The notes beneath the pieces were generated by a model. It worked only from the letters and a program-made list of their open reading frames with translations. It had not been told where the DNA came from and did no database searches. A stretch of 64,000 nt of DNA from contig CAZPTI010000001.1 of assembly GCA_964588925.1 (NCBI GenBank), positions 26,933-90,932 on the forward strand, given 5' to 3'. This document shows, piece by piece, positions 25,725 through 61,917 of the stretch (positions within the stretch are counted from its first letter, which is position 1; the number at the start of each line of letters is the position of its first letter). The DNA comes from an uncultured Anaerolineales bacterium (lineage in GTDB: Bacteria; Chloroflexota; Anaerolineae; CG2-30-64-16). Position numbers and translations under genes: made by a program.

Positions 25725-27104
25725 TTATAGCGCCGGCTCCCGGACTGCGCCGGCGCGCACCAGATCGAACTGCAACATCACCCAGAACAGGCCGGGCAGC
25801 GCGGAGGCTGGAATGCCGCCCTGCTCGGCCAGCGCGACCACGCGGCCCTTCCCGACCGGGATGCCGTTCTCCGGCAGCAGGTCGTACACGCGCGCGGCGA
25901 GGCGCGCGGTCTGCTCCACGCCGACTGACGCGCTGTCCCACCGGCCGCGGCCCGCGTTCCACACGCAGGTGAGCCGGCCCGACTCCCGCTCGATGCGCGC
26001 GCCGCTGCGCGCCAGCGTGCCGATGCTCTCCCACCAACCAACGGGGATGGTCACAGTGCGGTGGTCGAGCCGCCAATCCGTCTCATTAATGCGCCAGTCG
26101 CCCTTCTTCATAATGAGCCGGCCGTTCACGTACACGGTCGGCTTGCGCGCGATCATGTCGCAGTGGATGACCGATTCCACATCGCCACCCAGCCCCGCGC
26201 TATGCCCCACCGCAACGTGCACCGTGTGCGCCTTCTTCTCGTCAATGATGCCCAGCCCGGTCAGATCCTGCACTGCGGGATTCAGCCCGAAGCCGACCTC
26301 GGCCAGGTTCGACCAGTTGCCGTCGCCGCGGCGCTCCGCATAGGCGAACTGCGTCTCGCGCAGGTGCCGCGCAGTAGGGCAGTCGTCCGGCTGCATCTCC
26401 GCAAGGCGTCCCTCCCGAAAGGTCAGGATGATCTCATCTGAAGGGCCAAGCACCTTGCCCGGCACCGAACCATTGATGACGATGCGCCCATCTGCGTCGC
26501 GCGGGACGAGATAGACCTCACCGGGCGGCAGGTTGCTCCACGCGCCCTCGCGAATCGTCCCATCATTAATTCCCGGCGGGTAGTCCCACCCTCCCACGCG
26601 CACGTTCAGCCGGTGCTCGCGGCGCTCCTTGTCCGTTGTGACAATTTCCAGCCGCTTACCAAGGATGAGCGCCAGGCTGAGAAGCTGCGCCTGCTCGCTA
26701 ATCGCGGCGTAATCCGTATCCATCGCGCCGAGCAACGCGGCGCTGAGACCCGGTGCGTGCGCGAACCGAGCGCGACGCCCCCAGCTGGAGTGTAGCACGC
26801 GCATCCGGTAGCTCAAGTGCTCCGGCAAGTCCGACAGGCAACTTAGAATTGCGTCGGACTCGCGAATCGCCGCCTCTACAGGCAGCGGCAGGCTCTCGTT
26901 GACCCCCATCTCGGACTGAAGCACGCGCGGCACAAACAACGCAGTTGTCGCTATGCGCATTTCCCGCGCCGCACGCGCGATGATCTCGACCACGTCCATC
27001 GATCCCGCGTCGGCGAAAATGAGCAGGTTCTGGTCACGCCGCAGGTTAAAGGTGCGGGTCAGGATGTTCTGGGCGGCCCGATTGAGCCTGGCAGTGTCTG
27101 TCAC
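25725..27104 (-). CDS. M29 (aminopeptidase T/AmpS-like) family protein with a ~110-aa C-terminal extension
   Basis: LPPGEVYLVP, EVGFGLNPA and IIDEKKAHTVHVAVGH...SVIHCDM match the M29 metal-site regions. The GTG start overlaps the GT4 stop (GTGA, 27101-27104). Confidence 0.6.
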   Translation of the reverse strand: MTDTARLNRAAQNILTRTFNLRRDQNLLIFADAGSMDVVEIIARAAREMRIATTALFVPRVLQSEMGVNESLPLPVEAAIRESDAILSCLSDLPEHLSYRMRVLHSSWGRRARFAHAPGLSAALLGAMDTDYAAISEQAQLLSLALILGKRLEIVTTDKERREHRLNVRVGGWDYPPGINDGTIREGAWSNLPPGEVYLVPRDADGRIVINGSVPGKVLGPSDEIILTFREGRLAEMQPDDCPTARHLRETQFAYAERRGDGNWSNLAEVGFGLNPAVQDLTGLGIIDEKKAHTVHVAVGHSAGLGGDVESVIHCDMIARKPTVYVNGRLIMKKGDWRINETDWRLDHRTVTIPVGWWESIGTLARSGARIERESGRLTCVWNAGRGRWDSASVGVEQTARLAARVYDLLPENGIPVGKGRVVALAEQGGIPASALPGLFWVMLQFDLVRAGAVREPAL

Positions 27105-44271: not shown

Positions 44272-44430
44272 CTAAGTTTGTTCCCCATGCGTGATTTTAG
44301 GGTGCAGTTTGGCCGGAGACCGGCGGCGCTGCTATAATGCCTCTCGCTGACGAAAGCCAGCATTTGCCGGGCGCAACCGGCAACGACATGGGTGGATGGG
44401 AATTAACACGGACCTTGAGACAAGCGCGTG

Positions 44431-44513
44431 TGCCGAAGGTGGGAATCGAACCCACATGGGGCAACCCCCAGCGGTGTTTGAGACCGCCGCGTCTACCTTT
44501 CCGCCACTTCGGC
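44431..44513 (-). tRNA. tRNA-Leu (anticodon CAA), type II with a long variable arm
   Basis: Acceptor GCCGAAG/CTTCGGC with discriminator A. Anticodon stem GCGGT/ACCGC with loop CU-CAA-AC. Variable arm GGGG-GTTG-CCCC. T-arm GTGGG-TTCGATT-CCCAC. CCA is not encoded. Confidence 0.95.
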
Positions 44514-59132: not shown

Positions 59133-59354
59133 TCAGACAACCGGGCGCGTGACGCTGCGCGACTGGGCGAGTTGCGCTTCCAGCTCGGCGCGGCGCTCGG
59201 CCGCGGCGCGCTTGCCCTCTTCGAGCACCAGGTTGATGCGCCCCTTGATGCTGCTTTTCGTCTGCTCGCCCGACTGCGGAGCCATGAAAAGCGCCACGGC
59301 AGCGCCGACCACTGCGCCGATAATCAAGCCCTCGAAGAACTTCCCACCGTCCAT
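59133..59354 (-). CDS. YtxH-domain protein
   Basis: MDGGKFFEGLIIGAVVGAAVALFMAPQSGEQTKSSIKGRI. ATG 59354 is preceded by GGAGAAGGAG. Confidence 0.75.
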   Translation of the reverse strand: MDGGKFFEGLIIGAVVGAAVALFMAPQSGEQTKSSIKGRINLVLEEGKRAAAERRAELEAQLAQSRSVTRPVV

Positions 59355-59444
59355 CTGACGCTCCTTCTCCCATAAACACAACTCGTGAGCGAACGCGCGC
59401 AAGTATAGCACATCGCCGCGGGCGTCAAAAAACCAACTTTATCG

Positions 59445-61184
59445 TTAACAATGCGCGACCATATAGAGACCGTCGCGCTCGAACCCCTGCGCCTCGTAGT
59501 AGCGCCGCGTGCCAATAGCCGAAATCACAGCCAGGCGCGCAAAACCCGCTTCTCGCGCCCGGCGCCGCGCCTCTAAAATGAGCCGTCGCCCCAGCCCGAG
59601 ATGCTGCGCCTCGCCCGCGCTGTCCGATCCGATGCCGAGCGCCGGGCCGTATACGTGCACCTCGCGGATCAACGCCGCGCCGCGCAATTCGGGCAGCGCC
59701 TGCCAGATTTCCGCCGTCTCGACGATAGCCGGTTGATCGCTGTTCAGCCGCGGCAGCGACAGCCGCAGAAAGCCCGCCAGCGCGCCCTCCGCCGTCTCGT
59801 AAGCAAGAAACTGCTCGCGCGTCCCGTCTGTGTCGTACTCCTCCACTGCCAGGCGCAGGTCACTCCACGCCACGCGCGCGCCGCGCACCTCGCGGCAGCG
59901 GATGCAGTTGCAGCGCCGCCCTTGCTCGGCCAGCAGCGAGAGCGCCAGTTGGCGCAAGTTGGACTTCTTGCTGCCCGCAACGATGTCATCCGCCGGGATG
60001 TCGCGGAAGACGCGATTGATGCGGCAGTAGCGGGGCACAATGGCTTTGCAATCGGCGACGAGGGGAACGAGTTCTTCATCTGTGTACGGTCGGAATTGGC
60101 CTGCGCGCCACAGGTCGTACAATTCCGTGCCGTCGATTATGGAGCACGGGTAAATCTTCAACTCATCGGGCCGAATGGCAGGGTCCGTCCACAGCCGCAC
60201 GAAATCGGCCCGATCCGACTCAGGCGTCGCGCCGAAGAGGTTCGGCATCCAGTGCAAGTGCAACTTGAACCCGGCCGCGCGCAGCAACCGCACCGCGCGG
60301 CGCACCGCCTCCACGTCGTGCCCGCGCTGGTTGAGCGTCAGGATGCGCTCGTCGAGGCTCTGGACGCCCAGCTGCACCTTGGTCACGCCCAGCCGCCGCA
60401 TATGCAGCACTTCGGCGGGCGTCACCCAGTCGGGCCGCGTCTCCACCACGAGGCCGACGTTGCGGTGCGTTGCGGACTCGTTCTGAGCCTGCGCGTCGAG
60501 CAAGGCAGGCCAGTCCATCGTCTCCCGCTCGCTTGACGCGGTCAGCGGCCCCAGATCGGTCGCGTCGACTTGATCCGCATCGTTCATCGCCTGCAAGCAC
60601 CGCCCGACGAACCACTGCCGGTACTGCTTCGAGTATGCGCCCCATGTGCCGCCGAGGATAAGCAACTCCACCTTGTCGGCCACGTGCCCCATTGACTTGA
60701 ACGCGGTGAGCCGCGTGACGACTTGGCGGTACGGGTCGAAACCGCACTGCTCCGCGCGGCGCGCGCCCGGCTCGTTGGGCAGGTAGCTCTTCGGCATATT
60801 GTCCGCATCGGGGCAGAAGATGCAGCGGCCGGGGCAGCCCGCCGGCTTGGTCAGCACCGTCACCGGCGCAACGCCGGAAGCGGTGCGCACCGGCTTCATT
60901 TGCAGCCGCCGTAGCGTCTCGCGCTCGAATGGAATGACGCCCGCCGCGGTCAGCTCCTTATATGCCATGACCAGCTCGATCTTGGCGTAGAAGCCGCTCT
61001 CGCCGCTTGCCAGGCTCGTCTTGTTCGCCTTCGGGTGTTGCGCTAGAATCCGCATCAACGATTCGTCGTCCCAGTCCGCCGCGTTGCGGACCGCATCGAA
61101 GATGCGCAGCAGCATCTCCTGATGGCTGCGAATATCAAAATCGCGGCCGTGGGGCCGCCATTCCTTCTTAACGTTATCGACCAT
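59445..61184 (-). CDS. elp3: Elp3-family radical SAM / GNAT enzyme (tRNA U34 cm5 modification type)
   Basis: Radical-SAM cluster motif GCPGRCIFCP, a TIM-barrel region (VQLGVQSLDERIL), and the C-terminal GNAT motif A HLGLGRRLILEARRRAREAGFARLAVISAIGTRRYYEAQGF. Confidence 0.85.
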   Translation of the reverse strand: MVDNVKKEWRPHGRDFDIRSHQEMLLRIFDAVRNAADWDDESLMRILAQHPKANKTSLASGESGFYAKIELVMAYKELTAAGVIPFERETLRRLQMKPVRTASGVAPVTVLTKPAGCPGRCIFCPDADNMPKSYLPNEPGARRAEQCGFDPYRQVVTRLTAFKSMGHVADKVELLILGGTWGAYSKQYRQWFVGRCLQAMNDADQVDATDLGPLTASSERETMDWPALLDAQAQNESATHRNVGLVVETRPDWVTPAEVLHMRRLGVTKVQLGVQSLDERILTLNQRGHDVEAVRRAVRLLRAAGFKLHLHWMPNLFGATPESDRADFVRLWTDPAIRPDELKIYPCSIIDGTELYDLWRAGQFRPYTDEELVPLVADCKAIVPRYCRINRVFRDIPADDIVAGSKKSNLRQLALSLLAEQGRRCNCIRCREVRGARVAWSDLRLAVEEYDTDGTREQFLAYETAEGALAGFLRLSLPRLNSDQPAIVETAEIWQALPELRGAALIREVHVYGPALGIGSDSAGEAQHLGLGRRLILEARRRAREAGFARLAVISAIGTRRYYEAQGFERDGLYMVAHC

Positions 61185-61917
61185 GCAACCTCACACCGTT
61201 CAAGCGTTGCTGGCGCTCAACCGGCAGTTCTACGACCAGTTCGGCGGAGACTTTGCCGCGACGCGGCGCTCGCATCCACCCGGATACGACCGGATTTTAC
61301 CTTATCTCGCTCGCGCGACCAACGTCCTGGATCTCGGGTGTGGCAGCGGGCGATTGCTGAGTTACCTCGCGCAGCGAGATTGGTCCGGGCTGTACGTTGG
61401 CCTTGATAGCAGCGCGCGCCTGTTGGAAGAGGCCGCCGCACTCCCGCTCGGCGCATCTCGCATCCAGCGCACGCTGATCCACGCAGACCTCTTTAACGCA
61501 CCCTGGCCTGAAGAAGTCCAGAAGCCGGGGACGTTTGACGCGCTCGTCAGTCTCGCCGTGCTCCAACACATCCCCGGCGCGGCAAACCGCGCCACCTTTT
61601 TGCGCCGGTGCGCGGGCCTGCTGCCTCAGGGCAAGCCCTTCATTTTGACCACGTGGCAGTTTATGGCGTCCGAGCGCCTGCGTAAGCGCCTCGTCCCGTG
61701 GGAGCGAGTCGGGATCTCCGAAGACGAACTGGAGCGGGGGGATTATCTTGTGGGGTGGGGGGAAGGGTCGCCGGGCGCGCGCTACTGCGCGCTGATCGAC
61801 GAGAGAGCGTTAATTAACATGGCCGCCGGGGTGGGGCTCGATGCGGTCGAGACCTTCACCTCCGACGGCCATGAGGGCAGACTGAACCTTTACGCAATTT
61901 TCGAGAGGCGTCCTTGA
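61183..61917 (+). CDS. Class I SAM-dependent methyltransferase, Trm9-like
   Basis: FYDQFGGDFAATRRSHPPGY, VLDLGCGSGRLL, FDALVSLAVLQHIP, LLPQGKPFILTTWQF, LVPWERV and RYCALIDERAL parallel Trm9 motifs (IAPHFSQTRYKPWP, DVGCGNGKYL, FDFAISIAVVHH, GGQALIYCWALEQ, FVPW, RYYHLY.EGEL). Confidence 0.65.
   Translation: MQPHTVQALLALNRQFYDQFGGDFAATRRSHPPGYDRILPYLARATNVLDLGCGSGRLLSYLAQRDWSGLYVGLDSSARLLEEAAALPLGASRIQRTLIHADLFNAPWPEEVQKPGTFDALVSLAVLQHIPGAANRATFLRRCAGLLPQGKPFILTTWQFMASERLRKRLVPWERVGISEDELERGDYLVGWGEGSPGARYCALIDERALINMAAGVGLDAVETFTSDGHEGRLNLYAIFERRP

Follow-up and report, generated by a model that had tools for sequence, protein, structure and literature searches.

In eukaryotes, the two-step route to 5-methoxycarbonylmethyluridine (mcm5U), in which Elp3 acts first and the methyltransferase (MTase) Trm9 second, is textbook knowledge, and eukaryotic Trm9 requires Trm112. 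Clustering of Elp3 and Trm9 genes in the archaeon Sulfolobus solfataricus was reported in 2008 and formed the basis for a predicted archaeal modification resembling 5-methoxycarbonylmethyl-2-thiouridine, mcm5s2U (PMC2584109; repeated in PMC5372719 and PMC6144793), and the Trm9 candidates of Haloferax bind Trm112 (PMC6144793). Measurements on the stand-alone Elp3 enzymes of Methanocaldococcus infernus (MinElp3, archaeal) and Dehalococcoides mccartyi (DmcElp3, bacterial) showed that both bind tRNA and that tRNA triggers their hydrolysis of acetyl-CoA; solved structures of bacterial Elp3 are available, and the archaeal enzyme is reported to form 5-carboxymethyluridine (cm5U) in vitro (PMC6367351, PMC5372719). 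A different bacterial gene pair, mnmL(ytqA)-mnmM of Firmicutes, belongs to the pathway of 5-methylaminomethyl-2-thiouridine, mnm5s2U (bioRxiv 10.1101/2023.12.21.572861). The present analysis concerns an Elp3 gene and a divergent, Trm9-like MTase gene of an uncultured Anaerolineales bacterium (Chloroflexota; assembly GCA_964588925.1). Both genes lie in a stretch of 64,000 nucleotides, positions 26,933 to 90,932 of contig CAZPTI010000001.1, hereafter called the window.

The Elp3 gene occupied positions 59445..61184 on the minus strand (579-amino acid [aa] open reading frame [ORF]; predicted tRNA U34 cm5U synthase with radical SAM, Radical_SAM_C and GNAT/KAT domains). The gene for the Trm9-like class I MTase, dependent on S-adenosylmethionine (SAM), occupied positions 61183..61917 on the plus strand (244-aa ORF; predicted cm5U34 carboxyl O-methyltransferase). 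The divergent ATG codons of the two genes overlapped within the tetranucleotide CATG at 61182..61185, read in the sequence and found alike in 16 other loci.

Elp3 followed by a class I MTase of the Trm9 type is the order of catalytic families both in the eukaryotic system (Elongator plus Trm9-Trm112/ALKBH8, leading to mcm5U34 and mcm5s2U34) and in the pathway predicted for this locus, and six residues essential to Trm9 have conserved counterparts in the bacterial MTase. The bacterial module differs from the eukaryotic pathway in several respects: it is without Elp1, 2, 4, 5 and 6, no partner of the Trm112 kind came to light, its MTase keeps no equivalent of Trm9 Y243, its two genes sit side by side, and its product is a prediction. 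Like the S. solfataricus cluster, and like Haloferax HVO_2888 with HVO_1032 or HVO_0574, the locus combines a stand-alone Elp3 with a Trm9 homologue; unlike the archaeal cluster, its host is a bacterium of the Chloroflexota, its genes are strictly divergent, and the start codons overlap in one clade. DmcElp3 (PDB 5l7j) belongs to the same enzyme family (E 4e-104), and the gene directly next to it likewise encodes a divergent Trm9-like MTase, but DmcElp3 is without the N-terminal extension of about 90 aa seen in the window Elp3, its 224-aa MTase neighbour falls in a sister family, and an AT-rich spacer of 43 nt lies between the two genes, which do not overlap. The mnmL(ytqA)-mnmM pair is similar in being a bacterial xm5U34 pair in which a class I MTase accompanies a radical SAM enzyme whose Radical_SAM_C domain is of the Elp3 type. 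However, MnmL lacks a KAT domain and works after MnmEG, on the 5-carboxymethylaminomethyl (cmnm5) and 5-aminomethyl (nm5) groups, MnmM N-methylates an amine, and the mnmL-mnmM genes lie in an operon.

Full-text literature searches, which did not cover Glatt et al. 2016 (PMC5018218), returned no paper linking a bacterial Elp3 with a Trm9-like gene; the literature searched contained no statement of the in vivo end product of a bacterial Elp3 and no named bacterial Trm9, and the DmcElp3 literature examined named Trm9 solely as a eukaryotic enzyme. The initial annotation of this DNA had gone further, stating that stand-alone bacterial and archaeal Elp3 enzymes have been treated mainly as solitary; this overstates the gap because Elp3-Trm9 clustering in Sulfolobus was already on record (PMC2584109). 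The window pair is best described as a putative new representative, in bacteria, of a known pathway; comparative genomics supports it well, and its biochemistry is predicted.

The window Elp3 scored 505 bits against the NCBIfam model TIGR01211 (ELP3; curated cut-off 350) and contained the Pfam domains Radical_SAM (PF04055), Radical_SAM_C (PF16199) and GNAT (PF13673). Its best matches among solved structures were MinElp3 and DmcElp3 (6ia8, 5l7j; E ~1e-104), and residues 93-578 aligned with these crystallised proteins. The radical SAM motif CPGRCIFC was located at residues 117-124, with C117, C121 and C124 invariant in 29 homologues. The acetyl-CoA-binding Q/RxxGxG motif was present as QHLGLG at residues 527-532, and Q527, H528, G530 and G532 were likewise invariant in 29 homologues. 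TIGR01212 (MnmL) also matched the protein, at E 6e-17. Model score, domains and invariant cysteines bear out the reading of this gene as an Elp3 homologue with radical SAM and GNAT domains. Judged from its sequence, the 579-aa protein is a complete Elp3 with intact catalytic motifs, and orthology to MinElp3 and DmcElp3 suggests that it would form cm5U34.

The N-terminal extension (residues 1-92, window 60909-61184) was lineage-specific and carried a conserved WRPxGRDFD...RILAQHP segment. It was missing from DmcElp3 and gave no alignment to the N-termini of archaeal and eukaryotic Elp3, which bind tRNA. The product name attached to TIGR01211, '5-carboxymethylaminomethyl modification', is misleading and is spreading into bacterial genomes; 5-carboxymethylaminomethyluridine (cmnm5U) is the product of MnmEG, and the product of Elp3 is cm5U.

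Only generic MTase models of Pfam matched the window MTase. All NCBIfam scores were far under the cut-offs, with UbiG at 30.1 bits (cut-off 103), UbiE at 18.8 bits (cut-off 216) and CpaM among the weak matches, so that these profile searches did not group the protein with UbiE or UbiG. The silence of both libraries on Trm9 was uninformative because no Trm9-specific model was among the matches of either. A profile built from 29 homologues of the family placed 5cm2_Z, the Trm9 of Yarrowia lipolytica and the sole solved Trm9 structure, at the head of all PDB matches (55.6 bits, E 3.9e-14; 177,635 distinct sequences searched). This match spanned profile positions 25-218, from the F..TR motif ahead of motif I to the W...RY motif past the Rossmann core; the best generic MTase scored 7 bits lower and covered positions 39-157 only, i.e., the core. 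CmoM, which esterifies uridine 5-oxyacetic acid (cmo5U) in an analogous reaction, reached 32.8 bits (8joz_A) and 32.9 bits (4htf_A), and no chain named MnmM was among the 60 best PDB matches. In the reverse search, a fragment of Yarrowia Trm9 was compared with 9,616 ORFs (all fetched loci and the window) and returned 122 matches, all of them Elp3-adjacent MTases.

An AlphaFold2 model of the window MTase had a pLDDT (predicted local distance difference test) of 92.4 and a Rossmann-type topology, and in the Foldseek list, which did not separate Trm9 from other class I MTases, 5cm2_Z had the top target-normalised TM-score (0.75). The family contained 2,056 representatives (50% identity clusters) at E <=1e-30, and the annotation pipeline of the Joint Genome Institute labels several homologues TRM9 or ALKBH8 (alkB family protein 8). 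The family profile, the reverse search and these labels support a kinship of the window MTase with Trm9 that holds at the family level only. In some family members (P0204, P0206, P0254) the MTase domain was interrupted midway by a DUF559 (Vsr-like endonuclease) domain, and one cluster (P0213, 19 members) had a C-terminal GNAT acetyltransferase fusion.

Mutagenesis of yeast Trm9 (ScTrm9) defined eight essential residues: R29, D72, H116, W145, W168, R241, Y243 and N271 (PMC4678810). These were mapped to the window MTase via the profile alignment to Trm9, and conservation was counted in 214 family members. Six of the eight had counterparts that were 98-100% conserved: R28 for R29 (98%), D75 for D72, the acidic residue at the end of strand 2 (98%), H129 for H116 (100%), W158 for W145 (100%), W192 for W168 (99%) and R200 for R241 (100%). 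R29 and H116 are the carboxylate-positioning pair of Trm9. Conservation extended to Y17 (ScTrm9 Y18; 97%), H128 (ScTrm9 H115; His in 90%) and Y201 (ScTrm9 Y242; 98%), and motif I (D50-L-G52-C53-G54) together with D75 was 97-99% conserved. The series of Trm9 motifs originally read in this protein is supported by the family profile and the six essential residues, with one correction: VPW had been misplaced, the counterpart of the Trm9 VPW tryptophan being W192 (in LVGW) and not V171-P172-W173.

Relatives of the window Elp3 were sought by an Elp3-alignment scan of species-representative genomes. There were at least 554 matches, from which the best 80 loci were taken; all 80 were labelled Chloroflexota, mostly Anaerolineae. 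DmcElp3 has been described as a rare bacterial example of Elp3 (PMC6367351), whereas Elp3 is far from rare in Chloroflexota. Pairing was counted at loci with at least 1 kb of sequence upstream of Elp3. The MTase lay upstream of Elp3 in 61 of 71 Anaerolineae-type loci, on the opposite strand every time. A Dehalococcoidia-type pair was found in 49 of the 59 metagenome loci with enough upstream sequence and was always divergent. Five MTase homologues (36-60% identical to the window MTase) were also looked up by exact sequence: all five were divergent beside Elp3, and at two of these loci all other neighbours were different. The Trm9-like MTase was the only Elp3 neighbour conserved across both classes, Anaerolineae and Dehalococcoidia, and the synteny in Chloroflexota that the initial annotation had proposed for checking was thus found in two classes. 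A 7,310-nt contig labelled as a Nitrososphaerales archaeon (P0026 / P0171) encoded an MTase 59% and an Elp3 74% identical to those of the window; it probably belongs to Chloroflexota and was mis-binned.

The D. mccartyi Elp3 sequence was rebuilt from the PDB alignment, and its gene was then located on CP019867.1 (locus L086). The gene of DmcElp3 (5l7j) lay at L086 5001-6380 on the plus strand; a gene for a 224-aa class I MTase lay at L086 4283-4957 on the minus strand, divergent and 43 nt upstream of Elp3. The sister-family pair was also seen in L087 and L089-L168. Relatives of the D. mccartyi MTase bear the Trm9-like motifs IAPxWYNFRH, VATYHH, TVWNRWQ, VPWR, RYYYLF and SRNICLL, and mostly retain RYY, in contrast with the lost Y243 counterpart in the window family. 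A 16-member Dehalococcoidia MTase profile also placed Trm9 5cm2_Z first in PDB (E 1.3e-20, 77 bits) and aligned with the window MTase family at 99.4% probability. By these profile and motif comparisons, the D. mccartyi MTase family is a sister family that is closer to Trm9 than that of the window. The 43-nt intergenic spacer was AT-rich and contained TATAAT, which suggests a compact bidirectional promoter, a less extreme form of the overlap. Downstream of the Dehalococcoidia MTase, an ArsP_1-like permease fragment was followed, as the second gene along, by a conserved ORF of 72-75 aa (L086 3423-3650 minus; L087 3387-3605 minus) that gave weak zinc-ribbon matches only, and no match to Trm112p.

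The Elp3 and the MTase would together constitute a minimal two-step wobble-uridine pathway from cm5U to mcm5U, a reading to which we assign a probability of about 0.65. In step 1, C5 of U34 would be carboxymethylated by the radical SAM and acetyl-CoA (KAT) domains of Elp3, which would yield cm5U34. In step 2, the Trm9-like MTase would move the methyl group of SAM to the carboxylate, giving mcm5U34; homology, residue conservation and synteny all point to this step. As in the mechanism proposed for Trm9 (PMC4678810), placement of the carboxylate would fall to an Arg and a His, R28 and H129, and the nucleotide would sit in a pocket formed by W158, W192 and R200. Later 2-thiolation to mcm5s2U may follow. 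Chloroflexota with the pair, D. mccartyi included, probably make a modification of the mcm5U type in their tRNA, until now described from eukaryotes alone and predicted for some archaea. The mcm5U-type reading put forward by the initial annotation is supported by family profile, residues and synteny, with the product itself a prediction.

Several observations weigh against this reading. Two of the essential Trm9 residues were not matched well: the position of Y243 was C202 in the window and Cys (49%) or Val (43%) in the family, i.e., not conserved, and N235, the probable counterpart of N271 (uracil-ring recognition in Trm9), was Asn in 57%. N235 aligned with N212, which was invariant in the Dehalococcoidia family, and its pairing with N271 is indirect, as the printed Trm9 alignments end before that region. 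As a single sequence, the window MTase matched the Trm9 structure at E 0.78 with generic MTases on top, and in the reverse search its clade was the most divergent from Trm9 (12.4 bits for the window protein). Foldseek against PDB ranked Trm9 5cm2_Z 28th (E 1.2e-11), with dozens of class I MTases at near-equal E. About 15% of Elp3 loci had no MTase in the fetched 3-4 kb flanks. No Trm112-like gene (Trm112p, PF03966) was present among the few neighbours scanned, and no fused Trm112 domain was present in the N-terminally extended MTase representatives (~75 extra residues). The literature searched held no report of mcm5U in a bacterium. On the side of expression, a sigma-70 promoter scan of 60800-61600 gave no site, and the 17 CATG loci (the window and the 16 others) had no conserved TANNNT -10 element at a constant spacing from the start codon of either gene.

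Part of this evidence would also fit an MTase that partners Elp3 but carries out some other methylation: of another Elp3-derived side chain, at a different atom or nucleotide within these tRNAs, or as a step on the way to a different end product. Synteny shows a functional link and not its chemistry, conservation is lost at the position of Y243 and partial at that of N271, the window clade is the furthest from Trm9, and the literature searched gives no in vivo product for a bacterial Elp3. The residues that in Trm9 position the cm5U carboxylate and stack on U34 are nevertheless nearly invariant, both bacterial MTase families find their best match among solved structures in Trm9, and CmoM scores far lower (32.8 bits). 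We regard a different methylation as unlikely, although it is the likeliest of the alternatives. That Elp3 and the MTase are functionally linked in some way, whether through the mcm5U pathway or through such a different methylation, is very likely.

The overlap of the two genes also depends on where they start. On the plus strand the sequence reads cgacCATGcaacc, with CATG at 61182-61185, and the divergent ATGs have the bases A and T (2 nt) in common. The Elp3 ORF had no start codon upstream of 61184. The WRPxGRDFD motif (Elp3 residues 9-17) was kept across homologues, and the codons that lead to it from ATG 61184 (GTC GAT AAC GTT AAG AAG GAA) included no ATG, GTG or TTG. Position 61184 is the sole usable Elp3 start because the WRPxGRDFD segment is conserved and no other start codon stands ahead of it. 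On the MTase side, Met1 was at least 90% conserved, M-x-P-x-T-V-x-A-L-L-A-L-N-R-Q-F-Y aligned from residue 1 in the family alignment, and the ORF had an upstream in-frame stop followed by no start codon before ATG 61183. Both annotated starts are supported by the homologue alignments; ORFs, sequence and alignments agree with the Elp3 start at 61184, the MTase start at 61183 and the common CATG as first annotated.

The in-frame CATG overlap was also found in L001, L003, L005, L007-L014, L016, L017, L019, L020 and L025. With the window this makes 17 loci, which differed widely in their flanking DNA and in how long a stretch of Elp3 precedes WRP; the overlap is more than chance because it recurs in 16 other loci despite such divergence. 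It was present in 13 of the 16 species-level loci ranked nearest to the window (L006-L020, L025; Elp3 65-77% identical). Of the other three, two had gaps of 49 and 60 nt and one was apparently disrupted.

A shorter Elp3 would turn the overlap into an annotation artefact, with the true start at Met24 or Met44 and an ordinary intergenic promoter region of ~130 nt. Gene callers did pick an internal Met in some homologues (the 532-534-aa form in L001 and L004), the entire N-terminal region is missing from DmcElp3 (PMC6367351), and no ribosome-binding site was conserved ahead of ATG 61184, an SD-like (Shine-Dalgarno-like) GAGG preceding the Elp3 ATG in 5 of the 17 CATG loci. The shorter form, however, drops the conserved N-terminal segment: Elp3 residues 9-43 (WRPxGRDFD...LLxIFxAV...WD) were conserved at the protein level in more than 20 homologues, and the ATG of CATG was in the Elp3 frame in all 17 loci despite differing DNA and peptide lengths. 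A misplaced Elp3 start is accordingly quite improbable, and the conserved CATG overlap is an unusually clean example of genuine head-to-head gene overlap.

Since the start codons overlap, the transcript of either gene begins within the opposite gene or, as a leaderless mRNA, precisely at the gene's own start codon. The initial annotation had placed each promoter inside the opposite gene; this follows from the geometry, with a leaderless start at the gene's own ATG as the alternative. In the 17 CATG loci the MTase ATG had no obvious Shine-Dalgarno sequence ahead of it, and with Shine-Dalgarno sequences this sparse the mRNAs may be leaderless. The head-to-head layout points to co-regulation via a single shared control region, which in the window clade would have been compressed until the start codons overlapped. 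As a speculation, the CATG palindrome would lend itself to leaderless initiation, since it obliges both genes to begin with ATG in place of GTG or TTG. A perfect 6-bp GC hairpin (GCGGCC-GTGG-GGCCGC) lay at window 61143-61158, in Elp3 codons 9-14 and 25-40 nt upstream of the MTase ATG, and was flagged on both strands by a terminator scan. Similar palindromes recur in relatives and may merely reflect the codons of R-P-x-G-R.

That the MTase is an unrelated generic or small-molecule enzyme (UbiE/UbiG-like) beside Elp3 by chance is suggested by the generic Pfam models, the weak UbiG, UbiE and CpaM matches, the homologue name ubiquinone methylase in some sources and the unspecific Foldseek result, but is highly improbable given NCBIfam scores all far below their cut-offs, divergent pairing in 61/71 and 49/59 loci of two classes even where all other neighbours had changed, and a reverse Trm9 search that matched Elp3-adjacent MTases exclusively.

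Other neighbours of the pair were less widely kept. In 17 of the 80 loci, several of them labelled Candidatus Villigracilis, the MTase and Elp3 genes were separated by a gene for a CysH-like PAPS/APS reductase in the orientation of Elp3: L081 (3158-3910, plus strand; PF01507, E 6e-46), L050, L053, L057, L066-L070, L072, L073, L075-L077, L079, L080 and L084. Its presence there may relate to thiolation or be a coincidence, and with this frequency it was rejected as a general conserved partner. In the window, a gene for a YtxH-like small protein (59133-59411, minus strand) began 33 nt after Elp3 and is probably co-transcribed with it; it was also rejected as a general partner, occurring in 9 of the 80 loci, closest relatives only. 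Ten further nearby genes and the sole tRNA gene of the window (Leu-CAA, 44430-44513) showed no tie to tRNA modification.

Taken to its full extent, the proposal would be that Chloroflexota (Anaerolineae and Dehalococcoidia, D. mccartyi among them) make mcm5(s2)U of the eukaryotic and archaeal type at U34 by a minimal Elp3 and Trm9 module without Trm112 or the Elongator accessories, possibly acquired from archaea as a unit, and that one clade has a fully overlapped control region and possibly two leaderless mRNAs with AUGs that have two base pairs in common. This combination as a whole is tentative, and we consider it doubtful. The conserved Trm9-like neighbour gives a concrete prediction: mcm5U or mcm5s2U in bacterial tRNA. 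A ready experimental system exists in D. mccartyi because DmcElp3 has already been crystallised and its neighbour gene is now identified. The finding opens two questions to direct testing: what bacterial Elp3 ultimately produces in vivo, and whether Trm9 chemistry depends on Trm112. If the bacterial MTase works alone, Trm9 chemistry would not be intrinsically Trm112-dependent.

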